This document shows, piece after piece, positions 1,701 through 29,718 of a stretch of 64,000 nt of DNA. The notes beneath the pieces are model-generated. The model was not told the DNA's origin. It saw only the letters and a list, made by a program, of their open reading frames with translations, and searched no databases. Both the position numbers and the translations under genes were made by a program. Source of the DNA: a virus. The stretch covers positions 1 through 64,000 of the IMG/VR virus record IMGVR_UViG_3300043811_000032. One strand, 5' to 3'. Numbering within the stretch: the first letter of the stretch is position 1; the number at the start of each line of letters is the position of its first letter.

Positions 1701-4700
1701 TTACGCCACTCCTCCTACGTGTTCTATCCCGCTCGCCCCTATCGTCGCCGGCTTGCCGCTCGGATCGTTGGGGAAGATAGCCCCGCCACCACCCTTATCC
1801 TTCTCCCAGTCTCGCTTGACTCCCTCCGCATCCCACAGGGCACAGCAGTCGCGGTCGGTCACGGCAAACTGGACCCGAGGCTCGGTGCAGAATCCGTCCT
1901 TCACCCAGCGACAGTTGCCGCAGTTCGTACCCTTCACGCTGGGCGGCAGGTGCACGAAGTCGACCTTCTCTGCCCGCTGTACCTCGTCCGGTGACAGGGC
2001 CTTCCCCATCCGCCAGTCGTAGTTCTCACCTGAAGGATAATCATCGGTGTTCGCTTTGCTCAACGACTTCAACGCATAAAGGGTTCCGCCAGGTTTCTTT
2101 AGATCGTCGATGTCGTGAGCCATGCCCATGCGCAGCATTCGGGAGAGGATGACCTCCATCAGCTTTGGCTCGCTGAACTTGGTGCGCAGCTCCTGCAGGG
2201 ACCGAGGACGCTCACGGAGCATGTTAGTTAGCCAACGTTCGTACTTGTCGTAATCCTCGTGCTCGTCCCACTTGTCTTCCCACGAAGCCTTGTTCATCAG
2301 TCGGTCCGCAGCCGAGTCCGCCTGCTCGAACGAGTCGAACGGTCCGTGCTCGTTCCAGGTGCCGACCGGTCCCAGCGTCCACCAGCCGTCCTCGCGACGC
2401 TCGGTGGAGAAGGGTGAGGTCTTGAACTGTTCTGGGACAGCACTACTGGGGACTCCTCGACGAGACAATTCATCATCTACCGCGGTTCGCCAAGCTAACG
2501 CATAAGTTCCTGCTTCGTCACTCCACTCAGCGTAAGTCATTGCGTCTAAGCGTGCCCCGTTTGAACGTCGACTCTCTAACAATTTGCGAGTGCTCATTTG
2601 ATGAGCTATCTGCCTCTGCTTTGCGTCAGGCTCAACCCTACCTCCGGCCTTTCCCTTCCACCCGCCGATCCACGCTGCCGGCCACGGATGGTCGTCGGGT
2701 GCGGTTCCTGGAAAGTAGTCGACGCTGTCGGGCTCGGGCGGCGGCTGCTCCGGGTAAATCTCGCCGTCCTTGTCCTTGACCTGTGGAGCGGAGCCGCTGT
2801 TACCGTCTTGCCAGCCAGCGGTCCATCCACTTGCTTTGTATGGTTCACCAACTATGTAGGGGTTGTCCTCAGGACGTTCGCCTGACTCGGCGGCTCGGTA
2901 CCCTTCGGAGTACGCCACCTTGATGTCCCGCGTGATCGTAGGATCATCGCTGAACCGCATCAGCGCTGGACCCGGACCCTCAGGACCGTCGCCGACTTTC
3001 TCCTCAGCTCGCATGTCCGGCGTGCCAGGCACCATCACCAGATCACCCACAGCGAACCTGCCCATCCGATCCACGCTCGTCACCCGCACCTTGGCTGTGT
3101 CGCGGTCCGTGCCCTCGACGACGCCGGCCACGGTCTGGTCGGGCGTGGTGAACAGCACTGGCCAGCCATCGCCGCCCACCTTGCTGATCGACTGCGCCTG
3201 CACCGGTGCCTCGTCTAGTCCCGTGCCGCTCTCCGCGTGGCTCAGGTCGGACGGCTGCACACCCTCGGCGGTGCCGGCTGCCCGCACCTGCGGTCGCATG
3301 TCGTCGGCCAGATCGCCCGCTGCCGCCAGGTTCCACGGTGCGTTGCCGAAGCGATCCCCGAGGAGTTCTTCCGCGTTAGGAGCGACCTCACCCGACTTCT
3401 CCGGCGGCTTCCCCGTCGCCAGCGCCTGCCCGGTCTGCGCCTGAGCGATGCGTGCTGCCGACCCCTCGTCGTGCCCCTCGCGGAGCAGTGCCTGGTAGAC
3501 GTCATCGACCTTGGTGCCGGAGGGCTTCGTCACCACGTTGTCACCACTCGGCGTGGCGAACCCGTTGGCGTATAGCGGCGGCTTGGCGGTCTGTGGCGCA
3601 CGCTCCCCGAACTCCTCGGCCGGCGGCAGCGTCGGGTACGCCTGCACGGGGGCCTTGGTCTTGTCGTCCGCCACTTGCACCTTGCCACTGCCGAGGCAGG
3701 TCGGGCAGTTGCTGCCGCCGTCCGGTGCGACGCCCTTGCCGCCGCAGTCCTCGCACGTGACCTCCTTGGCCTCCTTGTCCTGCGGCTCGAAGTAGATCCT
3801 CGGCGTGGCGGTGCTGTTGCCGGGCGGCACATTGACGCCGAGCACGCCGCCTGCGGTCGCCTTCGTCTCTGGCTCCAGCAGCCGCAGCTTGTCGAGGATC
3901 TTGTCGTACTTGCCCTTGAAGCGCATGCCGCGGTCGTCGAGGTAGACCTTGACCTTGGGCTTGTGGTCCTCTATCGCATCGATGTGCCGGTCGAACTTCC
4001 ACTTGGTCAGCCACGCCTCGATCTGCTGCGGCGGGCGGCAGGAGAAGATGACCACCCGCCCGACCTTGGAGTAGAGTTTGGCCACGAACTCCTGAGCACC
4101 CTTCTGCGGGGGTGGCACGGCGTCGCCGAACTCGTCGTCGGTGCCGGCCATCCCGTAGGTGTTGAGCGTGGCATCGAAGTCTAGTGCCACGCTATCGATC
4201 TCGTACTTACCCTTGAACCACCACGGCTCGAAGTCGAGGATGGCGTCGAGGGCCTCGTCGTAGTCACCCTTATACCGCACCATCCGATCGTCGATGTACT
4301 TCTCCGCCCTCGGCTTCTCGGATATGACCTTCGGGTACGGTTGTCCGCCCATCGGGTCCGCTGTGCCGCCGCTGATGAGGTCATAGAGCTGGTATTTCTG
4401 GAGCCACTGGGTCACCTCGTCGACAGGGTGCGCGCTGTTGATCACCGTGCCGACCCGGTGCTCGCGGAGCGCCTCCAGGAACTCCTTGCATCCTTCCAGT
4501 GGCTCCAGGTGTGCGTAGTCCTCGCTCGTGTCCTTGTTCGCCAGCACGCCGCCCACGTCGAGGCACACGAGGCGGGAGACGCCGGGGAGCTTCTGCACTA
4601 TCAGGCTCTTATCCAACACAGAACCCTCTCGGCAAGTTATCGTTCCTGCACTGAATCGCCTGACAGTACCAGGGCGGGCATCTCTAAGCCACCTAGCCGC

Positions 4701-4982
4701 CGCTTCCTTCTCGCCCTCCGTCATCTGAGTCTTATCCAGTAGCTCGTCGGTCTCCCCCTCTGTATATTTCTCGCTCGGGTTGCCAAGCGAAGGAGAGACT
4801 ATAAAGTGTCTGTCGGCTGCTTTTTGCTCAGGCGGAGACTGCACCGTGTCCTCCGTCATCACGCTGCCCGGCATCTCCGTGCCGACCCGGTCCGCCACCG
4901 CCGCGTTATCGGTGTCGAGGACGAAGCGATCCGTGTACGGGAACTGGCTGCCGGGGTGCTCTACTCGGTAGGTCGGCATCAC
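1701..4982 (-). CDS. 1093-aa modular head-region protein (2 HAD-like domains, DnaJ-type Zn finger, RMF-like, HiPIP-like Cys motif)
   Basis: CLDVGGVLA...KPRAEKYIDDR and ALDFDATL...KPKVKVYLDDR (HAD-like); CEDCGGKG/CPTCLGSG; GYRAAESG..NPY..W..GW; NCGNCRW..GFC..V..CCALW. Confidence 0.7.
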   Translation of the reverse strand: MMPTYRVEHPGSQFPYTDRFVLDTDNAAVADRVGTEMPGSVMTEDTVQSPPEQKAADRHFIVSPSLGNPSEKYTEGETDELLDKTQMTEGEKEAAARWLRDARPGTVRRFSAGTITCREGSVLDKSLIVQKLPGVSRLVCLDVGGVLANKDTSEDYAHLEPLEGCKEFLEALREHRVGTVINSAHPVDEVTQWLQKYQLYDLISGGTADPMGGQPYPKVISEKPRAEKYIDDRMVRYKGDYDEALDAILDFEPWWFKGKYEIDSVALDFDATLNTYGMAGTDDEFGDAVPPPQKGAQEFVAKLYSKVGRVVIFSCRPPQQIEAWLTKWKFDRHIDAIEDHKPKVKVYLDDRGMRFKGKYDKILDKLRLLEPETKATAGGVLGVNVPPGNSTATPRIYFEPQDKEAKEVTCEDCGGKGVAPDGGSNCPTCLGSGKVQVADDKTKAPVQAYPTLPPAEEFGERAPQTAKPPLYANGFATPSGDNVVTKPSGTKVDDVYQALLREGHDEGSAARIAQAQTGQALATGKPPEKSGEVAPNAEELLGDRFGNAPWNLAAAGDLADDMRPQVRAAGTAEGVQPSDLSHAESGTGLDEAPVQAQSISKVGGDGWPVLFTTPDQTVAGVVEGTDRDTAKVRVTSVDRMGRFAVGDLVMVPGTPDMRAEEKVGDGPEGPGPALMRFSDDPTITRDIKVAYSEGYRAAESGERPEDNPYIVGEPYKASGWTAGWQDGNSGSAPQVKDKDGEIYPEQPPPEPDSVDYFPGTAPDDHPWPAAWIGGWKGKAGGRVEPDAKQRQIAHQMSTRKLLESRRSNGARLDAMTYAEWSDEAGTYALAWRTAVDDELSRRGVPSSAVPEQFKTSPFSTERREDGWWTLGPVGTWNEHGPFDSFEQADSAADRLMNKASWEDKWDEHEDYDKYERWLTNMLRERPRSLQELRTKFSEPKLMEVILSRMLRMGMAHDIDDLKKPGGTLYALKSLSKANTDDYPSGENYDWRMGKALSPDEVQRAEKVDFVHLPPSVKGTNCGNCRWVKDGFCTEPRVQFAVTDRDCCALWDAEGVKRDWEKDKGGGGAIFPNDPSGKPATIGASGIEHVGGVA

Positions 4983-6767: not shown

Positions 6768-8012
6768 TCAGTTGCCGCTCGCGTCGCCGAGCCCGACGTA
6801 CGCCGACACCGTAGTTGCACTCTGGTTGGCTAGCGTCATCGGCTTGGAGAGTGCCGGCAGACCATCGCCCCGCCATACTACTCGGAACGCCGCTTGGTTC
6901 TGCAGGAATGCCCACTGGTCGCTGTAGTCGATAAACAGCCCGCGATGGCCGATGATGTAGAGAGCCGGATCAAACAGCACCACGCAGCCGTCTTGCGGCG
7001 CGGCCACGCCGACATCCGGCAGCTTCTCGGTCTCGTAGAACGGCCGACCGTAGAGCAGGCCCTGGCTACCATCCTCACCGGGGATGTAGTAGAGAATGCC
7101 GCCGAGGCCGGTGAGGTTGGCGATGAACTGCATGGCGCCGGGGCTCATCGCCCACACTGCCCGCTTCTTGCTCTGTGGCAGAAGCCGCTGGTACATGTTA
7201 CTCAGGTCGGTCTGCGTCACGGTGCCGTTCACTTGCCGTGCCACCTTGAGCAGGCCGGGACATTGCAGGATGCCCTGCGGACCCGAGCTGTCGAACTGAC
7301 CGGTGAAGAAGTTCTGGTCCGTCCACCACGCCACGGCCCTCGTCGTGAACTGACGGATGAAGGCGTCGAGTCCGGGGTAGTCCTGCATCAACTGGTTGCT
7401 CGCCAGCAGATAGCCGTCGAGGTCGGTCGTGGTCAGTTCTACGGACCTGAACGATGGCTCGGTCTCGCTGATACCGCTGCCCTGCGTCTGGTTGAAGCTC
7501 ATCACCATGCCGGCGAACAGGTTGGTGATGCCGCTGGACGCGCTGGGTGTGGCAGCAGAGCCGGTCGGTGCCTTGTTGGGTGCCGTCACCGTCGGGTCGG
7601 GCAGCGGCATCATCAGCGTGTTGCTGGTCATCGGTTGGACGAAGGCGCGGGGCCAGAAGATGGAGTCCTCCGCCACGTCCTGCATCAGACCGTAGGCGTA
7701 CTCGTAGGGCACGAGGGCTCCGCCGGTGCCGAGGGTCAGCTCCGACAGGCTCGGGCTGGCCACCTTCTGCACGCCCCAGCCGGAGCGGTAGACCTTGTCG
7801 ATGCGCCGCACGGCCTCTTCGCGGACGATGCCCGGTCCCTTGTCGATCCCCTTGCCGCGGAGATCGTCGGAGATGGACTCGCACAGCTTGTAGCTCTTGG
7901 CCTTGACGACGCAGTGGAGCCACTCGCCGAATGACTTTTCCACGTTGCCAACCATCTCAGGTGGTGGAGCGTTGACTCCGGCCATTGTCTTGGTCTTCAT
8001 TTCGATCCTCAT
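6768..8012 (-). CDS. HK97-fold capsid protein (major capsid or paralog)
   Basis: GGALVP N-arm motif, G.SETEPSFRSVEL, G..GPQGIL, LYGRP..TE..P, F.QNQAAFRVV.R.DG. Confidence 0.85.
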   Translation of the reverse strand: MRIEMKTKTMAGVNAPPPEMVGNVEKSFGEWLHCVVKAKSYKLCESISDDLRGKGIDKGPGIVREEAVRRIDKVYRSGWGVQKVASPSLSELTLGTGGALVPYEYAYGLMQDVAEDSIFWPRAFVQPMTSNTLMMPLPDPTVTAPNKAPTGSAATPSASSGITNLFAGMVMSFNQTQGSGISETEPSFRSVELTTTDLDGYLLASNQLMQDYPGLDAFIRQFTTRAVAWWTDQNFFTGQFDSSGPQGILQCPGLLKVARQVNGTVTQTDLSNMYQRLLPQSKKRAVWAMSPGAMQFIANLTGLGGILYYIPGEDGSQGLLYGRPFYETEKLPDVGVAAPQDGCVVLFDPALYIIGHRGLFIDYSDQWAFLQNQAAFRVVWRGDGLPALSKPMTLANQSATTVSAYVGLGDASGN

Positions 8013-8275: not shown

Positions 8276-9111
8276 GTGTTTTTCAGGTACGCCATTGCTT
8301 TGGTATCATCGATGGCATCAGTTGTTGGGGCGTCCGTGTTGGTCAGAAACTGCTCGCCGATGTATTGACCAGTGTCCGTGACGTTGCCACCCTGCACCCC
8401 GCCAACAATTGTGTTAATCGTGAAATTGCCGGACAGAGTGCCGAGAGAAGCCTCGCCCATACCAGTGGACGTGAAATGAATCACGTTCGAGGCGTCACGG
8501 CGCACCCGAATCAAGATCCAGCCCGTCGATCCGGTAAATGCCGTACTGACAAATGACGACGCGTCATTCTGGGAATACAGGTTGTTGTCGGAGAACATCA
8601 AGATCAAGATGCCGTTGGTCGTGGTGTTACCGGCCGGATTCATGATCTTGCTGGCGGCGCGCGACACTGCGGCATAGAGGGTGAACGTTCCGCTGAGGAC
8701 CACCGCACTTCCTTGGCTCATGAAACCGCTGCCGGACAACCCCTGCACAGCGGGCAAGTTGTTCTGCTGGTTCGTGTTGAAAGTCGGTCTGTTGCCGCCG
8801 GTGGTCTGCGTGGCGTTGTCCGCATTGGTGCTCTGGTCGTTCCATTGCTCGATCAGCTGACCGTTGGTAGCCGGGGTCGATCCAAGGTCGCTGTAGACGT
8901 TCTTGTACGCCGCGAACCACCACTGCAGAGCGGCGCCGAATGTCAGCGGGGACCATGCAGCAGGTGGGGAGGAAGGCTTGCTCCCACCCACCCCGTACAG
9001 CTGCATCATCCGCCGTCGATCCCGCTTCGCCCGCCTGCTGACGACGGGCTCCCGCTTCGGCTGCATCAGCTTCAGTGCAGTCTGGTAGTCCTCCCAATCA
9101 CTCGGTAGCAT
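8254..9111 (-). CDS. putative virion beta-sandwich (LamG-like) protein
   Basis: WSP..LQWWFAA..TPATNGQLIEQWNDQS..ATQ..RPTF pattern; Thr/Gly/Asn rich. Confidence 0.6.
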   Translation of the reverse strand: MLPSDWEDYQTALKLMQPKREPVVSRRAKRDRRRMMQLYGVGGSKPSSPPAAWSPLTFGAALQWWFAAYKNVYSDLGSTPATNGQLIEQWNDQSTNADNATQTTGGNRPTFNTNQQNNLPAVQGLSGSGFMSQGSAVVLSGTFTLYAAVSRAASKIMNPAGNTTTNGILILMFSDNNLYSQNDASSFVSTAFTGSTGWILIRVRRDASNVIHFTSTGMGEASLGTLSGNFTINTIVGGVQGGNVTDTGQYIGEQFLTNTDAPTTDAIDDTKAMAYLKNTWTLTYP

Positions 9112-10012
9112 CGACTTCCTCGCACACCACGGAGCCGTCGTACTGCTGCGTAAACGTCTTGGTCACCTTGCGCGCCGGTGGTGGTGCCGGCTGCTCGGAC
9201 AGCTTCTCCACGAGGGATTTCTGGATCGCCTGCTGCCGCTCCTCGTTCTTCTCCATCCGCTCCAGGGCCTTGCGGACCTGTCTGATCGCTTCGGTAGACT
9301 GCTCTGCTTGCACCCGCATATGCTCGGCCATCTCCGCCATCGCCTTGGCCACCGCGGCGTTGTCGTTGATGATCGGGTTCGGTAGTGGTTGCGGTCTCTC
9401 CAGCGACTTCTCGATCAGCCGTCCCTGCTCGCTGATGCTCTCTAGTACCGAGGTCAAGTCGACCGGTCCCGGCATCGCCTTGAAGATCGGGGCGAACGAC
9501 TCCGTCAGGGACTTGGCGATGCCCGTTGCCATCGTAGCGGTGTCTACGTAGACCACCGGCTTGACCACCACCGGCTCCACATTCTGTGCCAACCCCTCGC
9601 TGATCGACTTGGCCACCGGTGCCATGTCGATGTTGAGCTTGACGTTCTTGAGTGCCTTCTTGATCGCCAGCCCGGTCGCCCACGACATCGCCTTGCCGAT
9701 CTGGTCAGCGAGGTGGTCCGTGTCCATGTTCATCTGGACCGGCGGGTTCTTCTCCAGCCGCTCGACCGCCTTCTCTAGCAGTTGCACCTTGACCGTCAGT
9801 TGCCGGTTCTCGTCGGTCAGTCGGCGGTTGTCAGTGACCAGCTCATTGACTTTGGGAGGCAGGTCGAGCACCCCGGACTGCTCCAAGATATCCGCCGTGC
9901 CGTCTACCATTGCCTCGATGGCGGAACGGTCCACGGCGGGCAGCATCGAGTCACCGGAGGCTGCCGGGTCATAGTCGTCCCTGCTCAGCCACCTATCAGA
10001 AGTAGGTGTCAT
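9098..10012 (-). CDS. hypothetical coiled-coil protein
   Basis: 304-aa ORF coupled to portal stop. Confidence 0.6.
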   Translation of the reverse strand: MTPTSDRWLSRDDYDPAASGDSMLPAVDRSAIEAMVDGTADILEQSGVLDLPPKVNELVTDNRRLTDENRQLTVKVQLLEKAVERLEKNPPVQMNMDTDHLADQIGKAMSWATGLAIKKALKNVKLNIDMAPVAKSISEGLAQNVEPVVVKPVVYVDTATMATGIAKSLTESFAPIFKAMPGPVDLTSVLESISEQGRLIEKSLERPQPLPNPIINDNAAVAKAMAEMAEHMRVQAEQSTEAIRQVRKALERMEKNEERQQAIQKSLVEKLSEQPAPPPARKVTKTFTQQYDGSVVCEEVDATE

Positions 10013-11994
10013 CAGTGTACCCTTCCGTTGCCGTTGGTAGATGGCCGCAGCAAGCCCTTGAACCGCTTGCTGAGCAGCTCTCGGACGTCCTGCTGTACCC
10101 GGCGCCTGTCCTCGATGCTCACACCAGTCGGTGGCAGCACGTCAGCTCCGTCGAGGGCCGAGTGCCCCGAGTGAGCAGTACTGTTTGGCACGTAACGCTG
10201 ACCAAAGTTGCGGGTCTCCAGTTGCTCGACCGGCACCGTGTAGCCCCCGGCCGCGCCGCTGCCCTCGCCCATCGCCTTGGGAGCGGATGGGGTTGGACTT
10301 GCAGTGCCGGTGCCGACCGACCCGCCGATGGCCTTATTCTCCTCGTCCTCGGCGAACTTCTTGAGCAGCCCGCACGCCTGCGATTCGTTGAAGTGGGTAC
10401 CGTCCTTGTGCAGTACGTAGCCCTCCGGCGTCCGCTCGATGAACCAGCGCCCGCTCTGGCCGTGGGCCTCTTGGTGACCATCGCGGGTCTTGAACCAGCG
10501 GAGCAGTGGACCGGCGTCCTGGTCCTCGTCCTTGTCCACGATCAGCGGGTCATCGTCCTCGGGGTTCGGGTTGAGCGCGATCTGACCGCCCGAGGCCCGC
10601 TGCATGGCCTGGTCCAGCTCGGCGTCGTCCTGCTGCTTCTCGCCGGTGACCCACGGCAGGATCTGGCCGTTGACGATGGGGTCATCACCGCCGAATGGAT
10701 AGGGCTCCTGGTTCTGCATCGTCCTTGCTTCGTTCGGGCTGCGCAGGCCGTTGGCCATCGCCAGCGCAATGTCAGCACGAGTATTCTCCTCGCTGTACAG
10801 CACCCGGTCGTCCCAGAAGCAGATGCCGGTCTCGCAGTTGGGCGTACGTCGAATCAACCCATGCGTGATGCGCTGGCTCAGGAAGCCGAGGAACGGGTTG
10901 ATATGGTAGCGGCAGAACGAGCGGAGCGGTGCGTAGTCCGAGACGTTGCCGCCTTGGTCGAGCCCCAGCAACTCAGGCGGCACCCCGAACGCGGCGAGGA
11001 TGTTCTCACGGAGCTGCTTCTCGTTCTCCACGTACTGCATGTCGACAGGGCTGAGACCGAGCGGCTTGACCTCCACGCCGGGACCGGTGATCAGCGGCTT
11101 GCCGGTGTTGTCCTCGCCCTGGAACCGACCGAACCACTTGCTGTAGTAGCGATTGAGCATCGACTCGTCGGGGTCGACGTAGTCCTCGCTCAGCGCCACG
11201 TGGAACGTCGGGATGGCTCCGTTCTTGTACTGGGCCAACCGGGCGCGAACGTGGGCGTTGTAGGTATCGATCCACTCGTTGATCATCAACGGCACACCCC
11301 AACCCTCGTAGCGGTTGAGGGGGCTGTGATCGTAGAACGACAGCACGTCATCGTAGGGGGCATACTGCAACGTGCCCCACGGACTCTGGATCGCGTACGC
11401 CTCGGGCATGCCATCCCGTCCGGTGACGAGCCGCATCCAGTGCGTGGGAATCACCCACACCTCGACCGGCACCCCGAAGGCGTTCCGCATCACCCACCAG
11501 TGAGCCTCACCGGTAAGCTTGAAGAACATTGTGGTGAACGCCCACAGGTCGTAGCTGCAGTCGAGCAGGTTCGGCAGGTTGAACAACCGCACGATGGGGT
11601 GGTCGTCGTCCCACGCCTCGAACTCCTCGTGCTCGCGTGGTCCGCCCAGCGCCTTCTTGCGCAGGCCGCGATACTGCTGCTGCTGGTTGCGGTGCCTGTG
11701 CAGCTCGGCGTAGGACTTGCGGTTGTCCATGCCGAGCGACTTGCACTTGCGGAGAACCTTCTGCTCACCCTCGTCCTTAGGAGTCAGGTTGCCAAGCTTC
11801 GGTCCCTCGCCGCCGGCCACCTCGGCCATCCAGGCCTTGATCGCCACGCCGACCCAGAAGTACATGCTGATGGCTTCTTGCCACTTGTACGCCTGGCCGA
11901 AGTAGGTCGCTCCACCGTATGGCGCATTGAAGACGCGGGGCACGAGCTGGCGACTGCTCGTAATGCGGGCTCGGGCTTTCTGTAGTATCTTCAC
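10012..11994 (-). CDS. HK97-family portal protein with C-terminal extension
   Basis: HPIVRLFNLPN, LTGEAHW, PVEVWVIP, YKNGAIP, DMQY, ILAAFGVPPELLG, GLRSPNEAR, GGDD. Confidence 0.92.
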   Translation of the reverse strand: MKILQKARARITSSRQLVPRVFNAPYGGATYFGQAYKWQEAISMYFWVGVAIKAWMAEVAGGEGPKLGNLTPKDEGEQKVLRKCKSLGMDNRKSYAELHRHRNQQQQYRGLRKKALGGPREHEEFEAWDDDHPIVRLFNLPNLLDCSYDLWAFTTMFFKLTGEAHWWVMRNAFGVPVEVWVIPTHWMRLVTGRDGMPEAYAIQSPWGTLQYAPYDDVLSFYDHSPLNRYEGWGVPLMINEWIDTYNAHVRARLAQYKNGAIPTFHVALSEDYVDPDESMLNRYYSKWFGRFQGEDNTGKPLITGPGVEVKPLGLSPVDMQYVENEKQLRENILAAFGVPPELLGLDQGGNVSDYAPLRSFCRYHINPFLGFLSQRITHGLIRRTPNCETGICFWDDRVLYSEENTRADIALAMANGLRSPNEARTMQNQEPYPFGGDDPIVNGQILPWVTGEKQQDDAELDQAMQRASGGQIALNPNPEDDDPLIVDKDEDQDAGPLLRWFKTRDGHQEAHGQSGRWFIERTPEGYVLHKDGTHFNESQACGLLKKFAEDEENKAIGGSVGTGTASPTPSAPKAMGEGSGAAGGYTVPVEQLETRNFGQRYVPNSTAHSGHSALDGADVLPPTGVSIEDRRRVQQDVRELLSKRFKGLLRPSTNGNGRVH

Positions 11995-12314
11995 TTGCCC
12001 AGCACCTCCCACCCCAAGAACCTGTCCCCGTCCCACCGCGGCTCTACCGTAGGCAACTGATGCATCGTCAACGTAGCAGGTAGGTCGCGGTGCTCGATCA
12101 TGAACTCCAGCGCGTCGCCCTTAGGGTACGGTACCACGATCACCACGCGGGCGTCCTCGGGTATACCGAGCCCACGCTGGTCGAAGTCCTCGGTGACCTC
12201 GCAGCACTGCTGCTTGTAACCGTTCTGCCCGACGGTGCGCTGAAACATCCGCACCTTCTGGCACTGCGGGTGGTCGATAGGTGCCAGCATCAGTCCCATG
12301 CGGACGGTTGTCAC
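11991..12314 (-). CDS. hypothetical protein
   Basis: ORF coupled to portal start, GAGG RBS. Confidence 0.55.
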   Translation of the reverse strand: MTTVRMGLMLAPIDHPQCQKVRMFQRTVGQNGYKQQCCEVTEDFDQRGLGIPEDARVVIVVPYPKGDALEFMIEHRDLPATLTMHQLPTVEPRWDGDRFLGWEVLGK

Positions 12315-16556: not shown

Positions 16557-16978
16557 TTCGCTACCGGTGGTTGAGGCTTGCGCAGTTCCTTGAGCAGTTC
16601 TTTGAGGTCGGCGATGTCCTGAGCGGACAGTCCATTCTTCGGTGCGACGGTCTGGGCGGGTGGTGCCGGTTGCAGAGTCGTCATCTGCGGGAGTCCTGCT
16701 GGTAACGTGAGCACCTGCGTGGTCAGCGGGGCGGTCGGCAGGATGATGCCGTAGTCGTATCCGTAGCCCTGCCGGTAGTAGCCGTTCCAGTAGCCGGCGG
16801 CGAACCAACGACCTCCGTAGATGCCAGCGGCGTAGTAGGTAAATTGCGGCGCATAGTATCCACCACTGTAGTAAGGTTGGGCATATCCATAGCTGTAGTT
16901 TGCAAAGTAGCCATACCCACCTGCCAAAGAGACCGCAGGGGATATTGCCAGCACCAGCATCGCAACTAGCTTGAACAC
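16553..16978 (-). CDS. secreted Tyr/Gly-rich protein
   Basis: Signal peptide; YxxGY-rich; GGAGG RBS. Confidence 0.7.
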   Translation of the reverse strand: MFKLVAMLVLAISPAVSLAGGYGYFANYSYGYAQPYYSGGYYAPQFTYYAAGIYGGRWFAAGYWNGYYRQGYGYDYGIILPTAPLTTQVLTLPAGLPQMTTLQPAPPAQTVAPKNGLSAQDIADLKELLKELRKPQPPVAK

Positions 16979-17583
16979 AGAGACCTCCTCTTTCTTCGCT
17001 TAACCAGAGAAGCCATCAACTGCAACTCCTCCGGCGAGAACAAGTGCCGCCAAAGAATCCCCCGCTTGATCCCAGAGATGGGGCACGTCGATACAGAAAA
17101 GTGTCTGGCTATATCCTCTAGATTTCTACCAGCGACGATCATCACAAATGCTTCTCTGACTTGTTCCTCGGTCAGTTTAGCACTGGCGTTTTCTACTCCT
17201 ACCTTGATTGGAGGGTCTTTAGGAGTCCCATGACGCAGGGCGTCTTCCCTGTTTTGTAACTGAGTACCCCAAGCCAGATTGTCTTTCGTATTGTCTAACT
17301 TGTCGCCATTTAGATGCCTGCACTCTTGCCCATCTGGGCACGGTCCGTGAAAAGCCAACGCTACTAACCTGTGGACGGTGATCGAACGCCTTCTGCCGTC
17401 TGCTGTAGTAAGTCCGACGTGTAGATACTGCTTTCCTTTAGTTCCTTGCAGACCCGGCTTAAGTCGTTTCCACCAGTCTCTAAATCCGTGCCTAGCGTTC
17501 TTACAGGTCCATACTGACCCGTCCGCACCAACCCTGTAACCCGGAAATCCTAATGACTCCAAGTGTCTGTAGACTACTGGCAT
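16966..17583 (-). CDS. HNH homing endonuclease (NUMOD4-like N-terminus)
   Basis: FPGYRV..G.VW, TVHRLVALAFHGPCP..ECRHLNGDKLDN..NLAWGT..N, AKLTEEQV; visibly more AT-rich. Confidence 0.9.
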   Translation of the reverse strand: MPVVYRHLESLGFPGYRVGADGSVWTCKNARHGFRDWWKRLKPGLQGTKGKQYLHVGLTTADGRRRSITVHRLVALAFHGPCPDGQECRHLNGDKLDNTKDNLAWGTQLQNREDALRHGTPKDPPIKVGVENASAKLTEEQVREAFVMIVAGRNLEDIARHFSVSTCPISGIKRGILWRHLFSPEELQLMASLVKRRKRRSLCSS

Positions 17584-17591
17584 CGTCTTCT

Positions 17592-17670
17592 CCTGGAAAG
17601 TTGCCGTGGATGCCGTACCGCTTTCCAGGGACAGCACAGCACCACACGGCGTAGAAGGTTATTATACTAT
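17592..17670 (-). promoter_or_regulatory. TATAAT -10 element and RBS-sequestering hairpin for HNH gene
   Basis: ATAGTATAAT at 17670-17661; 9-bp inverted repeat CCTGGAAAG/CTTTCCAGG overlapping AGGAG. Confidence 0.6.
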
Positions 17671-18404: not shown

Positions 18405-18775
18405 GGCGCCTCCACGCAGTCCATCAGACCGTCTTCAATGTACTCGTATCCAGTCCCCTTGACAGCTTCTATAATCGCTTCAGCTTCCAGACGACCTATC
18501 CTTACCTGCCGCTTCTCGTGCGGGCTCGGCTCATTGCCCCTGATCGCGACTACACCGGCAGCCATTGGATACTCGTGATCGCCGTTAGCGACATACTCTC
18601 GTATATGGTTGGCCCAGGCACTACCCTGCTCTTCGAGCCAATCTGCAAACGCAAGATAGAGCATCACATCACCCGGTGGAGACAGATGCGACCACGACCC
18701 ATCCTTTTTCCACTTGGCCCAACGCTTGTCTCTGTCAACTCGCAGCGCCCGTATCCAGTCAGCAGGTCCAATCAC
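18401..18775 (-). CDS. TIGR02996-like motif protein
   Basis: LYLAFADWLEEQG..WANHIR. Confidence 0.6.
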   Translation of the reverse strand: MIGPADWIRALRVDRDKRWAKWKKDGSWSHLSPPGDVMLYLAFADWLEEQGSAWANHIREYVANGDHEYPMAAGVVAIRGNEPSPHEKRQVRIGRLEAEAIIEAVKGTGYEYIEDGLMDCVEAP

Positions 18776-20406
18776 CGTTGCCTCCCTCCGTCGCGTGCCT
18801 TTATTTTATCCTCACGAGCCCTCATCAGCTCCTCCCACGTGCGGCCTTTCTTTTGCTCTTGGTCGAGGAGTTGGCACAATTGCAGCGCGTGGTGATGGGC
18901 AGTTGCCTCGTAGTTATCCCTTCGGATGCCGCGACCCGAACCAATAGCGTTGCTGAGGCGAGGATCGATTCCAACTCCGAGAGCAAGAGCCTTCCGCGTG
19001 TGCTCTGGGCTGTAGCAACAGTTGATCGCGATCTCGTTGATCGTGAGCTGGTCTTGATGGTAGCCATAGACGATCCTCGCGATGTTGGCCGCGTTGTCCT
19101 GCGGGCTCATGCCGTTGCAGGAGAACAGTGCCTTGGCGTAGAGTGCTTGGTCGTCCTTGAGTGCTGCGTCAAAGTCCTGCTGGAAGAGCTGCTGCACCAG
19201 GTAGGAGTCGTCCTCATCCAGCACCAGTAGCCGCACGTTCTTCCGTATGTCCGTGACTAACCGCACCTCGTCGGCCACCTCCTTGAGTCCCTTGTCGTGG
19301 CAGATGATGCAACTCGCCCCCGGATAGATGCCCTTGTACTTGAAGTGCGTCTTCCGGTCCACGACGATGTTGGTGTCGCCAACATTGACCAGCTTGTCGT
19401 TCGCATCCGTGATCGCGTAGTACTGGAGCCGGTTGGGCAGACTCGCTATGAACTCCCCGGCGTCCCGCACCTTTTTCTTGCCATCGACCTTCTTTCCCTT
19501 GATGAACAGCAGCACGTTCAGCAGCAAGTCGTTCTCGTCCACTGAGGTCAGGTAATCGAAGCTGCTGTGCCGGTAGCCGAGGTTGGTGGTCTCTCGCACC
19601 AGTGCCCGGTTGTTGAGGCTCACCTCCGTGCTGTCGATCACCGTGCCGGCTGCCTTGATGTCCTCGTTGTCCTCGGGATGGTAGCGACCTATCTTGTCCC
19701 AGCTCTTCAGGTCCTTGCCGGCGCCGAGCAGCTCGTAGTAGATCGGCGCGAACAGGGCGTTGGCCACGAACCAGTCGGCCCGCACTATCGGGAAGTCGGT
19801 GCCCGTCAGCTTCGCCAGCTTGGCCACGCTCTGCTGGTTTAGTTCCGGTGCATGCTTCGTGACGAGAGTAAGCTTCTTCTCCCAGCACCAGTTGTACGTG
19901 TAGCCGTTGTGGACGTATGGCTCGCACTTCGTCTTGCACCATCCAAGGGCTTGTTCTTGCTGATGAAAGTACGGTTCGGGGAAGTCTTTGTCCGGCCTCG
20001 CCACCCGCAGCGGTCCGCCGCCATGCAGCCCCAGATTCTCCCACGCCTCGGGACTGATGCAGGCGTCCTTGAGGTTGAACCGCATCAGCCGGCCCTTGTC
20101 GACCGGCACAAACCCAAGCATCAGGACGTTGCGGCTCAGCGAGTTCCACGTGAACAGCACCGCCTGCACGAGTGCGAAGTACTCGTCGGGATGGATACCA
20201 GAGAGCGCAACGTACCGAGAGCAGTAGGCTTCGTTGGAATCAAGCGTGCCAGCGTCTGCGAGTGCCGATTCCACCGCCGCATCGTACCTGTAGACCTCCT
20301 TGTACGGGTCGAGCGGTTGGGCCGTGGGCGGCTCGCTCCGCAGCGGCGTCGAGAGCAGCGACCCGATCCCAGCTGCCAGCGTCTTGAGTGCTTCTCGGCG
20401 GTTCAT
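18772..20406 (-). CDS. twin-arginine-leader protein with single CxxCH motif
   Basis: MNRREALKTLAAG leader; RADWF, LPNRLQYY, GASCIICH. Confidence 0.75.
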   Translation of the reverse strand: MNRREALKTLAAGIGSLLSTPLRSEPPTAQPLDPYKEVYRYDAAVESALADAGTLDSNEAYCSRYVALSGIHPDEYFALVQAVLFTWNSLSRNVLMLGFVPVDKGRLMRFNLKDACISPEAWENLGLHGGGPLRVARPDKDFPEPYFHQQEQALGWCKTKCEPYVHNGYTYNWCWEKKLTLVTKHAPELNQQSVAKLAKLTGTDFPIVRADWFVANALFAPIYYELLGAGKDLKSWDKIGRYHPEDNEDIKAAGTVIDSTEVSLNNRALVRETTNLGYRHSSFDYLTSVDENDLLLNVLLFIKGKKVDGKKKVRDAGEFIASLPNRLQYYAITDANDKLVNVGDTNIVVDRKTHFKYKGIYPGASCIICHDKGLKEVADEVRLVTDIRKNVRLLVLDEDDSYLVQQLFQQDFDAALKDDQALYAKALFSCNGMSPQDNAANIARIVYGYHQDQLTINEIAINCCYSPEHTRKALALGVGIDPRLSNAIGSGRGIRRDNYEATAHHHALQLCQLLDQEQKKGRTWEELMRAREDKIKARDGGRQR

Positions 20407-20430
20407 CGTTGCTCGTCTACGGTTGCTTAA

Positions 20431-20609
20431 AGGCTGAGGATGGAATCGAACCACCGCCCTCCGGTTTATCAGACCGGTGCTCTTGCGACGGGGCCTACGG
20501 GGTAGCAGACGACCCGGTACCAGGCCCGCCCTTTCAACTTCCGCCGCCCCAAGACCCTACCGAAGCGTCCTCCGGTAAACGGCTCCTTGGCCTGCTGAGC
20601 TACTCAGCC
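20431..20609 (-). tRNA. tRNA-Ile(GAU) interrupted by 103-nt insertion
   Basis: GGCTGAG/CTCAGCC acceptor, TA-GCTC..GAGC D arm, CCGGT-CTGATAA-ACCGG anticodon arm, GGTGG-TTCGATT-CCATC T arm; 103 extra nt between two GAGC copies. Confidence 0.8.
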
Positions 20610-21373
20610 ACCTTCCTCACCAGCGCCGCCAGCCCGTCGGCCGTGGTCGGCACCTTCAGGGCACGACCCTCCGGCAGCACATGGCCGGCGGAGTCGAGGA
20701 TGATCAGGGCCGGCACGCCGCCACCGCCCGGCTTGGTAGCTATCTCGGTCAGCTTCCGTCGCACCGCCGCCTCGCTGCGGAAGTCGTAGGCGTGGAAGGC
20801 ATGACCCTCGGACTGAAGCCGCTTGGCCACGTCGCTGTTCAGGATCGCGTCCAGCTCGGGCGTCTTCTTGTCGACGTCGTAGACCAGGTTCACGTCCACC
20901 CGCTGGCTCGGTGCCTTGGTCGTCGGCTCCTTGGCCGTAGATGCCTCGCCGCCCTTGGCCCGCACCCGCACTTGAGCGCTGAACGGCTCGTCCTTCACCG
21001 CGCTGATCGCCGTCACCAGCACGAACCCTTGCCGCGGCACCGCCACGATGAGGATCGGTGCACCTGGGTATGCGAAGGTCTTGATCGGCTTGTCGTAGCC
21101 GTCGACGTGCACCAGCCACTTGACCTTACCCTGCGTCTTGGCCGGGATCACCACGAACGGGTCCGTGTCTGGATCCACCTCGATGTCGCCGAGTGGCTTG
21201 CCACTCGGGTCCACCAGTTGGATCGGTGGCTCGCTCGTCGGCGCCGGTGCGTCTGCCACCTTGGCGTCGGGCTCCTTCTGGCTGCGAGCGGCGAGCAGGC
21301 CACCGAGCATCAGGAGCAGGATGGCGACCGACACTACCGACAGCCGAAAGCCTCTAACCACGTTGATTGCCAT
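20600..21373 (-). CDS. secreted/membrane-anchored protein, possible thioredoxin-like C-terminal domain
   Basis: Hydrophobic leader; GVPALIILDSAG.VL..VP; no CxxC. Confidence 0.6.
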   Translation of the reverse strand: MAINVVRGFRLSVVSVAILLLMLGGLLAARSQKEPDAKVADAPAPTSEPPIQLVDPSGKPLGDIEVDPDTDPFVVIPAKTQGKVKWLVHVDGYDKPIKTFAYPGAPILIVAVPRQGFVLVTAISAVKDEPFSAQVRVRAKGGEASTAKEPTTKAPSQRVDVNLVYDVDKKTPELDAILNSDVAKRLQSEGHAFHAYDFRSEAAVRRKLTEIATKPGGGGVPALIILDSAGHVLPEGRALKVPTTADGLAALVRKVAE

Positions 21374-21457
21374 TGTTGCCTCTCTGCCAGGAGCAGATTT
21401 CCACCAGTAGCACGTAAGCGATAACGAACAGCACGCCAACCGTGAACAGTTGCAGGG

Positions 21458-21724
21458 TTACCCAGGTCGATGGACGTCCGGGTCGAGCTTCACTTGGGCC
21501 ATGAAGTGGACAGCTAGCCCAATGACACCGAACTGAATGATCGTCAGCAGCACCCACGCCAGCCACGGATTCGCTCGGCAGTAGTCGGTGATCGTGCCCT
21601 CGTTCCCGTACTCGCGGTACAAGTACAGATCGAAGGCAAGCACCAGCAGGATGCCAACCGCCGTGGTCACGAAACTGGTCAGGCCGAGTACTTGCCACGT
21701 CAGGTTATTCCACCATTGAATCAT
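21458..21724 (-). CDS. two-TM membrane protein
   Basis: Two hydrophobic segments. Confidence 0.6.
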   Translation of the reverse strand: MIQWWNNLTWQVLGLTSFVTTAVGILLVLAFDLYLYREYGNEGTITDYCRANPWLAWVLLTIIQFGVIGLAVHFMAQVKLDPDVHRPG

Positions 21725-21915
21725 TCCTTGACCTCACGCACCCTGCCACGAACCATACGGTACTTCTTCTGCGGCTTCTCCGTCCTGACGACGTTCAACC
21801 CGGCTAGCGTCTTTGGATCGTAATCAGTAACGAACTTGCGGAACCCTTCCTCTGTACCAGTCCACCACCACTCGCCAAAACCCTTTGGGTCGCCCATGTC
21901 GCTTATCTGGATCAT
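21721..21915 (-). CDS. hypothetical protein
   Basis: Coupled ORF. Confidence 0.5.
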   Translation of the reverse strand: MIQISDMGDPKGFGEWWWTGTEEGFRKFVTDYDPKTLAGLNVVRTEKPQKKYRMVRGRVREVKE

Positions 21916-22132
21916 TCGTCCCTCGCCTTCAGCCCGAACTTCTCTTCATTTACCACGCTCCGGTGCCCCTTGTATGCGTATGGGTCCGTGACGCCGACGT
22001 GGTCCAGCCGCTTCTGCCGGTCACAGCGCTTGTGCCCGGCGTCGATGCACTTGGTGCAAAGGTGACCCTTGTTGGCCGTCTCCTTGGTGCACATGCAGGT
22101 CACGCACTGACAGGACGGATGGCGTTCGTGGC

Positions 22133-22564
22133 TCACTTCTTGCTTGCCTCCACCTCGGCTCGGTATCGCAGCGCATCTTTGCGCACGTTCGGGTTGATTC
22201 GCTTGTAGTCGCCGAGGTGCCCGAACAATAGATGACAGTTGTGACTGTCCGGTGCCGGTCCGCAGAGGGTTATAAGATTGTTCGGGTCTAGCTCCAGCTC
22301 GGGGTGCTCGTGGAAGTCCTCCACATGGTGCACCTGCAGGTTGTGCGTATGGCCGCAGAACGCACAGGCGGGCTCCTTCTCCAAGTGAGCCTTCTGCACC
22401 GCCGGCCACTTGCCGCTGCGTGCCTCCTCATGTCCAACCAGCATCGGCACGGCAGGCGGCTCAGCCTTCTCCAACCAAGCCGTCAACGCCACGCTACCGA
22501 TGGCGGCGAGCACCACGCACACGATGCCGATTGCCGCGAGGGCGTCGAGGGTTCGTTGCTTCAC
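22133..22564 (-). CDS. HNH endonuclease with N-terminal hydrophobic segment
   Basis: CAFCG..LQVHHV..PNNLITLC..CHLLFGH. Confidence 0.8.
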   Translation of the reverse strand: MKQRTLDALAAIGIVCVVLAAIGSVALTAWLEKAEPPAVPMLVGHEEARSGKWPAVQKAHLEKEPACAFCGHTHNLQVHHVEDFHEHPELELDPNNLITLCGPAPDSHNCHLLFGHLGDYKRINPNVRKDALRYRAEVEASKK

Positions 22565-22800
22565 TTCTCGATCCTCTGTTGCGCCAATCGGCTTTTGGCT
22601 GCTGCTAACCGGATCTCCGCCACCCGTACCGCGCTCTTGGCCTGCTGAACGGACAGCAGCACCTTGCTGATCTCTTCGGGAGACTCGGGCACGCTGCGGA
22701 CCCGGTCCAGCTCGTCCCGCCAGTACGCCATCGTGGTCTGGGCCAGCTGTAACTCGACCTCCTTGACGGCGACGTCCTCTTCCTGCTCGGTCACGTTCAT
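22561..22800 (-). CDS. coiled-coil hypothetical protein
   Basis: Coupled ORF. Confidence 0.5.
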   Translation of the reverse strand: MNVTEQEEDVAVKEVELQLAQTTMAYWRDELDRVRSVPESPEEISKVLLSVQQAKSAVRVAEIRLAAAKSRLAQQRIEK

Positions 22801-22990
22801 TCCTCGTCGAACTCGCGGCACCCGCAGAGACTGCAAGGAGCCGTGGTACCGCAATGATGCAGCCGTTCATGCCCGCAGGAGCAGATGGCTCGATTCAACA
22901 ACCGCCATCTCTCGATGCCTCCATCCGCCTTAATCTGATCTTCGGTGGGCTTAACAGCAGCCAGAATATCTGCTTTAGTAATGATAACGG

Positions 22991-27916: not shown

Positions 27917-29718
27917 TCACATTGCATTAACCGACTGATCAGTTCCATGACAGTCACTGGTGCTCTCCTTCGGTTTGACTCTGTATCGCTGTGACCGCCG
28001 CCCGTGCCACATCGTCTCGATGCCCCACTGAATCGGGTCGCCCTCAGGCTTGGAAATCCGGCTCATCTGCTCAGTAACGTGGGGGAGCAAGTACGGGTAC
28101 TCTTCCTTAATGAACCCCTTGATCTCTTGCCGCAACTTGCTCGGGTCGCGAGCTAACCGCAGCCAGCTCGCTTCCTCCATCGGCCAAGTTACATCACCTA
28201 GCTCAGGATCGTAGTGGTCCCAGCCCTTGCCGTCGTACCCCTTCTGAGCGTGTTCCCAAGCCTTGCTGTACTCCTCACCGAAGAGGCTATGCTTGCACAA
28301 CCCGTCGCTCCTCCAGCAGTAGTTAGCTAGCGACTCGTAGAAGTCTGTGAACGTCTCACCGCTCTGTCTTGCCAGCAGGTTGGTCAGCCCGAACGCATGG
28401 AACGTCAGCATCAGCCAGTTCCACACGTAGACCTCGATGATGTCGTCGCCCGGCAGCGTCCTGGTCCGCCTGACCATCCGCTCGTACTCGCCCGTCGTTT
28501 CGCCCGGCTTGCTGTGGGCCACGAACATCGGGCTGTCGAACGTCTCGATGCCATGCTCGGTCAGGTACGCCGGATCGTTCATCGGGGCGTTGACGAACAC
28601 CGAGCAGTTCCACGTCATGATCGCCGGTGCCGGGTCCAGTGCCGCCAGCGTCTCCCACGTCCGCTTGAAGCTCTCGGCCGTCTCGCCGGGCAGGCCGAGG
28701 ATCAGCTCCGTGTAGCTCCGCAGGCCCTCGGCGTCGAAGCGGTCGATCAGTCCCTTGAAGCTGTCAAACTTCACGTTGCTCCTCTTGACGATCCGCAAGA
28801 CATCGGAGTCGAGGCTCTGCACAGATAAACTCACACCCCGTAGGAGTCCAGATGAGGCGAGTACCCTGGCTATCGGGATGATCCTCTCTGAAGAGGATTT
28901 CACCCATGTCAGCCCCAGTGCCTCGGGATATCCGGTTCGCTGCTTCGTCTCCGCGAGCTTCGTCGCTATCCACTGGTCACGCTCCTGGAACATCCCGAAG
29001 TTGGCGTCACAGCAGTCCACGTACGCGATCTCGTTGTCGCCGAACCACTCGATCTCCGCCTCAAGCCGCTCCTCGGAGAACTTCCGCACCTTGCTCTTCG
29101 TGGCCGATCCCCAGTCGCAGAAGGCTTCCTTCAGGTACAGGCGAACGGACATCCCCGGTTGGATTCCCAGGATGCCACCCACCTGTACCTACTCCTTTCT
29201 GCTAGCTTCCACATCAAGCCTGTTGTGAACGGCGACGGGATGCTTTCGAGGTCTTTGATACGTTCGCGCGGCAGTCCTTTACCTTCTCTCGTTTCGATAC
29301 CAAGGACCAGTCCACCACCTCGCCTGTAATAACTATCGGCTTGGAGAACTTCCGATAATGAAACCTCGCCTTCCCCGTGGACGAGTACATCAACATAGCT
29401 ATGCCGTTCAAAGAAACCTTCGGCATGGTCGGGCACCTCCGGGCCGCCGAACACCACTTTGAGCCGCGGGTTCAGTTCCTTGGCCCGCCTCGCCAGTCGG
29501 TTCGTCGCCCGCCAGTTCCAGCAGTAGCACGAGCACAGCAGCCAGTCGGAGTCGCGGCACGCCTCGGCGTCGGCGTCGATGTTCCGCTTGTCCACGAACG
29601 TCGGCTGCAGGTCCATGTCCACGAACTGCAGCGCGTAGCCGACCACCGTGGCGATGCTGCAGGGCAAGTGCAGCTGGTCGCCGAAGAAGACGCCGTACTG
29701 GGAGGAGGAGACTTTCAT
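27917..29718 (-). CDS. B12-binding radical SAM enzyme interrupted by 11-nt insertion (recoded gene or pseudogene)
   Basis: 5' part SCYCWN..VFGGPEV..HGEGE..WESNRGCPFACT* and 3' part FCDWGS..DANFG..LSVQS..ELILGLPGET join in frame if 29123-29133 is removed. Confidence 0.85.

Follow-up and report, generated by a model that had tools for sequence, protein, structure and literature searches.

A tRNA-Ile(GAU) gene interrupted by about 104 nt in its D loop in a soil phage

The locus and its phage

The virus record, assembled from a soil metagenome, is 98,691 bp long, and the window analyzed here covers its first 64 kb. The record ends in direct terminal repeats, which would suit a linear genome of lytic type better than an integrating one. 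The phage is tailed, with a portal gene at 10012-12036 and a major capsid gene at 6768-8012, and the minus strand carries almost all genes of the window. Two free-standing HNH endonuclease genes (16966-17637 and 22133-22870) lie 1.5-3 kb from the interrupted tRNA gene described below.

On the minus strand, the 179 nt at positions 20609-20431 hold a canonical tRNA-Ile(GAU) gene in two halves, with 103-104 nt lying between them. The 5’ strand of the acceptor stem, GGCUGAG (20603-20609), is a perfect 7-bp complement of 20432-20438. It is followed at 20587-20602 by U8-A9, the 5’ strand of the D stem, GCUC (20600-20597), and the 5’ part of the D loop, AGCAGGCCAA; the D loop is read as AGCAGGCCAAG, with G18 and G19 at 20592-20591. 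On the far side of the insert (20483-20586), a GAGC at 20479-20482, preceded by AA (A21) at 20484-20483, is likely the authentic 3’ strand of the D stem. A26 (20478) and the anticodon arm CCGGU-CUGAUAA-ACCGG, with the anticodon GAU at 20470-20468, occupy 20461-20478. The remainder, 20431-20460, consists of the variable loop AGGGC, the T arm GGUGG-UUCGAUU-CCAUC (20455-20439), the 3’ strand of the acceptor stem, CUCAGCC (20438-20432), and the discriminator U (20431), after which TTA follows and no CCA is encoded. An earlier note on this DNA had described the overlap of the 5’ end with the upstream stop codon, the U discriminator and the missing CCA, all of which can be read in the sequence.

All 21 stem pairs are intact in the exons, which also carry U8, A14, G18-G19, U33 and the T-loop consensus, with the tertiary partners G15-C48, A9-A23-U12 and G46-G22-C13 in place. 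The discriminator is the exception: it is A in the comparison tRNA-Ile genes that were read (L009, L010, L012 and L014), and A73 is an identity element for IleRS in E. coli. GGCTGAG occurs 14 times on both strands of the 98.7-kb genome, but only in the copy belonging to the tRNA is it followed by the start of a D arm, and no second T arm with five pairs was found elsewhere in the phage genome; the two halves therefore belong together. The insertion-bearing tRNA gene is real, and it is the only tRNA-like gene of this 99-kb phage.

Default tRNA scanning misses the gene, as the earlier note had anticipated. ARAGORN with default settings reported no tRNA in the 64-kb window, and the Rfam tRNA model (RF00005) aligned only to the 3’ 65 nt (20495-20431, 34.6 bits), with a false acceptor strand, three broken pairs and a 4-nt D loop. 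In a deletion scan, every possible segment was removed and the remainder rescored with ARAGORN. The maximum, a tRNA-Ile(GAT) with a score of 123.5, was reached after taking out 103 or 104 nt, and the repaired gene then satisfied the tRNA-Ile(GAU) cloverleaf with its conserved nucleotides and GAU anticodon. This bears out the claim of four intact arms around an interruption of about 103 nt, and gives the comparison with and without the insert that had been proposed. The score is on a par with the best of the uninterrupted tRNA-Ile(GAU) genes from other phages and an acidobacterium (109.6-123.1). Among the other tRNA-Ile(GAU) genes found by pattern, 14 of 15 are uninterrupted; the fifteenth (L013) has a non-canonical 5’ half and is not called by ARAGORN. 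The cloverleaf is the minimum-energy fold of the 75-nt form left by removal of 104 nt, but not of the 76-nt version.

The upstream protein gene (20600-21373, minus strand) encodes 257 aa as called, with a longest ORF reaching 21439 and a GC3 of 0.83. This gene is real: four homologues (P0002-P0005) with 53-58% identity share its C-terminal end position, and all five proteins end in ...VRK(V/I)A(E/G/S). The acceptor 5’ strand overlaps the last codons of this ORF (Ala-Glu), so that its last two codons and TAG stop correspond to tRNA positions 2-10, and U8-A9-G10 of the tRNA is the stop codon itself (20602-20600). Since the TAG lies within the tRNA, RNase P cleavage at G1 would cut the upstream message 7 nt short of this codon. 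All five proteins have Ala (GCN) at -2, a codon that would fit G2-C3 of an overlapping tRNA, a hint that the tRNA has possibly long been present at this locus. The downstream gene (18772-20405, minus strand) begins with an ATG at 20405-20403, 25 nt past the 3’ end of the tRNA, and its product has an N-terminus that resembles a twin-arginine export signal. The genome is densely packed, and the tRNA element takes up nearly all of the 195-nt intergenic space between these two genes.

The best clue to the host is a DUF1559 (SBP_bac_10) protein, pilin-like with N-terminal methylation, encoded within 62-99 kb of the genome and belonging to a family that is typical of planctomycetes and expanded in them. 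Together with a ribosome modulation factor domain, this pilin-like gene makes a bacterial host very probable, and that host is probably a planctomycete. The modulation factor domain (PF04957, residues 686-727) is found in a 1093-aa protein (1701-4982, minus strand) that also matches the PHROG phosphoheptose isomerase, an odd fusion adjoining the head genes.

Several other features of the phage were recorded. Two regions, 25690-57821 in the window and 62699-98584 in the genome, hold a large sugar-nucleotide and glycosyltransferase cluster with epimerases, a DegT aminotransferase, a GHMP kinase, TPP enzymes and B12-radical SAM enzymes. They also hold a thymidine-hypermodification set, namely two 5-hmdU DNA kinases, a thymidylate-synthase homologue, a TET-associated glycosyltransferase and a radical SAM/SPASM enzyme. 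One protein of the terminase (Terminase_6N) set, located in 23331-56222, matches an intein splicing domain (PF14890, E=5e-6), and the terminase of this phage may carry an intein. An 11-nt stretch, TGAAGGAAGCC (29123-29133, minus strand), with an in-frame TGA, lies inside the CxxxCxxC of a B12/radical SAM gene; deleting it restores ...RGCPFACTFCDWG..., making it a second small disruptive insert of this phage.

The insert and its junctions

GAGC, the sequence of the D-stem 3’ strand, is present twice, at the start of the insert (20585-20582) and directly after it (20482-20479). The figure of 103 nt between the two copies, given in the earlier note, holds as the copy-to-copy distance (the 103-nt removal being 20483-20585), while strictly between them there are 99 nt (20581-20483). 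The junctions themselves read CAAG-G-AGC and CAAG-AGC, so that the flanking repeat is not a 4-nt duplication of GAGC, as had been proposed, but an imperfect direct repeat of 7-8 nt, CAAG(G)AGC. It allows four equivalent cut registers for removal of 104 nt and five for removal of 103 nt.

The insert had been assigned to the junction of the D arm and the anticodon arm; it is better placed inside the D loop, because of three results. tRNA fragments from other organisms in the soil runs match the 3’ half but stop at 20483/20484, with the AA still included; one of them goes on with an ordinary, contiguous 5’ half. Taking out 104 nt (20586-20483) joins ...GGCCAA to GAGCACCGG... and leaves a canonical 10-nt D loop, AGCAGGCCAA, with A21, of the same length as the loop of the uninterrupted phage gene in L012 and similar to it in sequence. 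In the minimum-energy fold of the full 179 nt, the D stem is closed by the second GAGC, and the acceptor, anticodon and T arms are kept.

The description of the insert as structured agrees with its potential for pairing but has no statistical support. Of the pairs seen earlier, TACCGGAG-GACG-CTTCGGTA (20577-20558) is a real hairpin of 8 pairs with one G-U (20558-20577, minus strand; UACCGGAG-GACG-CUUCGGUA as RNA), and GGGCCT is complementary to AGGCCC. The predicted fold adds a long, imperfect, branched stem (20491-20557, minus strand) in which GGGUCUUGGGG... pairs with ...CCCCGUAGGCCC and whose stability is within the range of shuffled sequences. Against dinucleotide shuffles, z is -0.29 for the insert and -1.09 for the whole element, and no helix joining the two ends of the insert appeared in the predicted folds. 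With the native insert, the stems of the acceptor, anticodon and T arms had a mean pair probability of 0.74; with 400 shuffled inserts it was 0.50 +/- 0.26. The difference in compatibility with the cloverleaf is not significant, as 18% of the shuffles reached the native value.

The identity of the insert was examined by the covariance and sequence searches that had been suggested. No Rfam family was found in it at E<=10 with permissive filters, including group I introns, small self-cleaving ribozymes and Y RNAs, and inspection by eye revealed neither an HDV-like P1 complement nor a hammerhead CUGANGA core. It matched none of 50,697 phage records and had no second copy in the phage or in the related phage G001 (below). 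No sigma-70-like promoter or terminator was found within the element. We also considered whether the insert represents the decayed inner halves of a tandem tRNA duplication, which was not supported: its local alignment to tRNA gave p=0.34, and position-constrained alignments gave p=0.59, 0.24 and 0.37.

Conservation and origin of the interrupted gene

A 46.8-kb contig from an independent assembler, perhaps of the same sample, spans 18500-22500 with no differences and a depth of 67. Together with the perfect pairing of the two halves, this identity makes it hard to credit that the locus is an assembly artefact joining two tRNA-bearing reads, even though 20438-20484 is matched by tRNA fragments that come from other organisms in this sample. 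The contigs of two soil runs contained no insert-less DNA form, the second run, in which the phage is at low depth, not bridging the element; none of the runs listed as holding the stretch is an RNA run.

Searches for related elements returned few matches. The exact 28-nt 5’ half had no hit in IMG/VR, and the same acceptor stem occurred there only in unrelated Phe and Asn tRNAs. The T arm plus acceptor had no hit in GTDB genomes, while the anticodon arm had two, a normal acidobacterial tRNA-Ile (L014) and an Aminicenantes locus not called by ARAGORN. A gapped pattern for a tRNA-Ile interrupted in the D loop retrieved no like case from IMG/VR: nine matches were tandem tRNA arrays or odd upstream tRNAs followed by an intact tRNA-Ile, and the tenth (L022) was coding-looking sequence beside an oddly called tRNA, with one locus among the matches a repeat of another. 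The upstream protein, searched singly and as an alignment, had no relatives in IMG/VR, and its alignment retrieved from JGI metagenomes one contig, which ends inside the upstream gene.

Two unrelated IMG/VR phages carry other unusual elements, both upstream of normal tRNA-Ile genes. In one (L025:2367-2584), a tRNA 5’ half comprising the acceptor strand, the D arm and the start of the anticodon arm runs into sequence whose product would contain an HNH-like CANCH motif. The other (L030:10857-11079) has a tRNA-like gene of ~105 nt with matching acceptor strands, an encoded CCA and ~30 extra nt between the anticodon and T arms.

A portal-based search identified one real relative, G001 (IMGVR_UViG_3300025536_000013), which is syntenic and has a portal 53% identical, in addition to two distant ones. 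G001 contains a tRNA-like element of 110-122 nt (contig 8520-8641, plus strand; L002:1490-1611) at a different spot in the same variable region. The T arm of this element is good, its D arm is of class-II type (GGU-GAGCGGCCUAA-ACC), and its acceptor has two possible 5’ strands, offset by 12 nt; no single deletion gives it a clean anticodon arm. Its best ARAGORN reading requires a 17-nt deletion beside the D arm and has the anticodon AAA, with an alternative 7-nt loop GACUAGA (CUA), and its score against the Rfam tRNA model is 27.5 bits, below the cut-off. It may be read as a product of decay or as a second expanded tRNA-like RNA.

The reading that we prefer, with a confidence somewhat short of even, is that the element is a young copy of a tRNA gene, crippled or dead and not yet decayed. 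In such a scenario, the only tRNA gene of the phage would have taken up ~104 nt of unrelated sequence in its D loop, in an event that left the CAAG(G)AGC repeat at both junctions; such a repeat would be the usual footprint of illegitimate (microhomology-mediated) recombination or of a small duplication-insertion. Lying between two genes of one minus-strand operon, the element would be co-transcribed with them. Three arms (acceptor, anticodon and T) could still form in its RNA, where the D stem would be closed by the second GAGC and the insert would protrude from the D loop. Because these remaining arms would form, RNase P and the 3’-end trimming enzymes could still excise the RNA from the operon transcript. 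Neither the insert, the phage nor known bacterial biology seems to offer a route for removing ~100 nt from a D loop, and an extra domain of that size at the tRNA elbow should hinder use of the RNA by the ribosome.

The flanking repeat, the unusual U discriminator and an insert with no catalytic, structural or comparative sign beyond random sequence are all consistent with a young dead gene, as is the uninterrupted state of 14 of the 15 other tRNA-Ile(GAU) genes. The degenerate tRNA-like element of G001 suggests that tRNA decay occurs in the lineage, and the insert in the radical SAM gene is another small disruption in the same genome. Against a dead gene, the exons are flawless save for the discriminator and the score of 123.5 equals that of working genes, so that a dead gene must be very young. 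The 195-nt intergenic space is also almost wholly given over to this element in an otherwise dense genome, and the tRNA introns of Lak phages provide a precedent (PMC6784885) for the possibility that a phage tRNA splicing pathway exists that is yet to be recognized. The earlier note, which had proposed an atypical intron, a tRNA-scaffolded non-coding RNA or decoy, or a miniature element, was right that an interrupted gene is present, but did not list recent disruption, the simplest reading.

A working RNA of either kind, with the insert removed or kept, is in our judgement, when the two are taken jointly, about as probable as the young dead gene, if slightly less so. That the phage needs the gene and makes a working RNA from it, through excision of the ~104 nt from the D loop by a protein route independent of a bulge-helix-bulge (BHB) motif or as a tRNA that is itself active with its ~100-nt domain, is possible but doubtful. 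Excision by host or phage proteins, which taken separately we think unlikely, would produce a 75/76-nt tRNA decoding AUC and AUU, its halves either rejoined by an RtcB-type ligase or left unjoined and kept together by the 7 bp of the acceptor stem and by D-T loop contacts, as happens in fragmented rRNAs once their intervening sequences are excised. The pristine exons would reflect either selection or a very recent event; AUC and AUU make up 88% of the Ile codons of the phage, this is the only tRNA that the phage has kept, and splicing to 75 nt would leave an RNA whose minimum-energy fold is the cloverleaf. There is precedent, too, for phage tRNA genes that carry unexplained inserts (PMC6784885). 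The insert nevertheless lacks a catalytic RNA signature in Rfam, a BHB motif at every allowed register on inspection, and a long stem at its base for RNase III, and no ligase or endonuclease for the purpose was found in the phage: no RtcB was present, and no RNA ligase, polynucleotide kinase or splicing endonuclease was detected among the 82 phage proteins scanned against Pfam. We know of no D-loop intron in bacteria or phages, and no bacterial or phage tRNA interrupted in the D loop is described in the literature searched.

Retention of the insert is likewise improbable when considered separately. The 179-nt product would be a tRNA-shaped non-coding RNA with a large D-loop domain, which might divert a host nuclease or toxin directed at tRNAs, acting as a decoy, or might simply be an RNase P/RNase Z cleavage site separating the flanking messages. 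The predicted full-length minimum-energy fold, which would retain the acceptor, anticodon and T arms and the D stem via the second GAGC, is consistent with such a role, as are the perfect anticodon stem-loop and the multi-armed tRNA-like RNA of G001, which is 110-122 nt long, has a good acceptor and a good T arm, and lies in the same variable region. That tRNA-like Y RNAs occur in phages (PMC4201824) lends this reading further plausibility. Both the fold and the cloverleaf compatibility are, however, within the shuffle range; there is no match to YrlA, the GNCGAA motif is absent and the phage has no Ro60 gene, and RNase P cleavage at G1 would remove the stop codon of the upstream gene. To our knowledge, no anticodon nuclease is aimed at tRNA-Ile(GAU).

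That the locus is the footprint of a mobile or integrating element, be it a miniature transposon that duplicated its target or an attachment site on the tRNA 3’ half, is very improbable. A direct repeat does flank the insert, and the two free-standing HNH endonuclease genes are 1.5-3 kb away, but the insert lacks terminal inverted repeats and occurs nowhere else in the phage, which weakens the miniature element proposed earlier. No tyrosine integrase (PF00589) was found in the genome, an attachment site would leave the intact 5’ half unexplained, and the direct terminal repeats would again suit a linear, lytic-type genome. ARAGORN in intron mode (-i) also offered a tRNA-Ser(GGA), with a 100-nt intron at the canonical position 37/38 and the anticodon stem GUUUA/UAAAC, at a score of 108.4. 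This call falls 15 points short of the Ile reading, has C33 in place of U33 and a variable region of 8-9 nt that cannot form the long arm needed by bacterial tRNA-Ser, and discards the perfect CCGGU-CUGAUAA-ACCGG arm. It arises only because the start of the insert (UUUACCGGAGGACG) resembles AUAAACCGGAGGGCG, the 3’ strand of the anticodon stem, a similarity that intron mode exploits but that is not significant, and we regard a tRNA-Ser as scarcely conceivable.

The consequences differ among these readings. A young dead gene would offer a snapshot of tRNA loss by a phage. If instead the RNA is matured or used, the phenomenon of interrupted phage tRNAs would extend from the anticodon loop to the D loop, for which no bacterial splicing route is known, and the 179-nt element would be a compact substrate for an enzyme search. 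Excision by proteins would constitute a non-BHB route of tRNA splicing or fragmentation new to bacteria, while an active form retaining the insert might act, for example, as a decoy against tRNA-directed defence. Default tRNA scanners, meanwhile, report this 99-kb phage as tRNA-free.

Comparison with known interrupted and tRNA-like RNAs

Bacterial group I introns in tRNA genes, such as those in cyanobacterial tRNA-Leu(UAA) and Azoarcus tRNA-Ile, likewise interrupt a bacterial-type tRNA gene. They are located in the anticodon loop, measure at least 200 nt and contain the P3-P9 catalytic core, whereas the present insert is ~104 nt long, half the size of the smallest natural group I introns, and lies in the D loop. 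A group I intron was rejected on this position and length and on the lack of an RF00028 match at E<=10.

The BHB introns of archaea and red algae offer a parallel in position, since sites in the D loop or D arm are known among them and their exons become canonical once the insert is removed. Such introns need a BHB motif (two 3-nt bulges and a 4-bp helix) and a splicing endonuclease. In the present element, no allowed register lets a 4-mer from the start of the insert pair with one from the start of exon 2, and no BHB occurs in the predicted folds. Intervening sequences of 23S rRNA are a further case of extra sequence in a stable RNA that is cut out without rejoining, possibly as here; RNase III releases them by cutting at the base of their long stem, while the present insert has no such closing stem.

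Among RNAs that combine a tRNA shape with an additional module, the tRNA-like Y RNAs (YrlA) of bacteria and mycobacteriophages, described by Chen et al. in 2014 (PMC4201824), resemble the element in having an extra non-tRNA module, and are sometimes phage-encoded and cut by RNase P (PMC4201824). YrlA RNAs have no anticodon arm, carry a GNCGAA motif and adjoin a Ro60 gene (PMC4201824); the present element has a perfect anticodon arm. A YrlA or Y RNA identity was rejected: GNCGAA(N)G is absent from the element, no TROVE/Ro60 gene was found in the phage, and there is no Rfam match.

A further likeness is to the tRNA genes with “enigmatic” introns reported in Lak megaphages by Devoto et al. in 2019 (PMC6784885). 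There, as here, a short non-coding insert interrupts a phage tRNA, with no recognised self-splicing fold and no known removal route in bacteria (PMC6784885). The Lak inserts were found by eukaryote-mode tRNAscan, that is, by way of the anticodon loop (PMC6784885). They are conserved, and often identical, across cohorts in 540-kb gut phages (PMC6784885), whereas the present insert occupies the D loop of a tRNA in a 99-kb soil phage and has no known second example. Its D-loop position would make this locus, one sequence from one sample, a candidate new variant of the interrupted phage tRNA gene.
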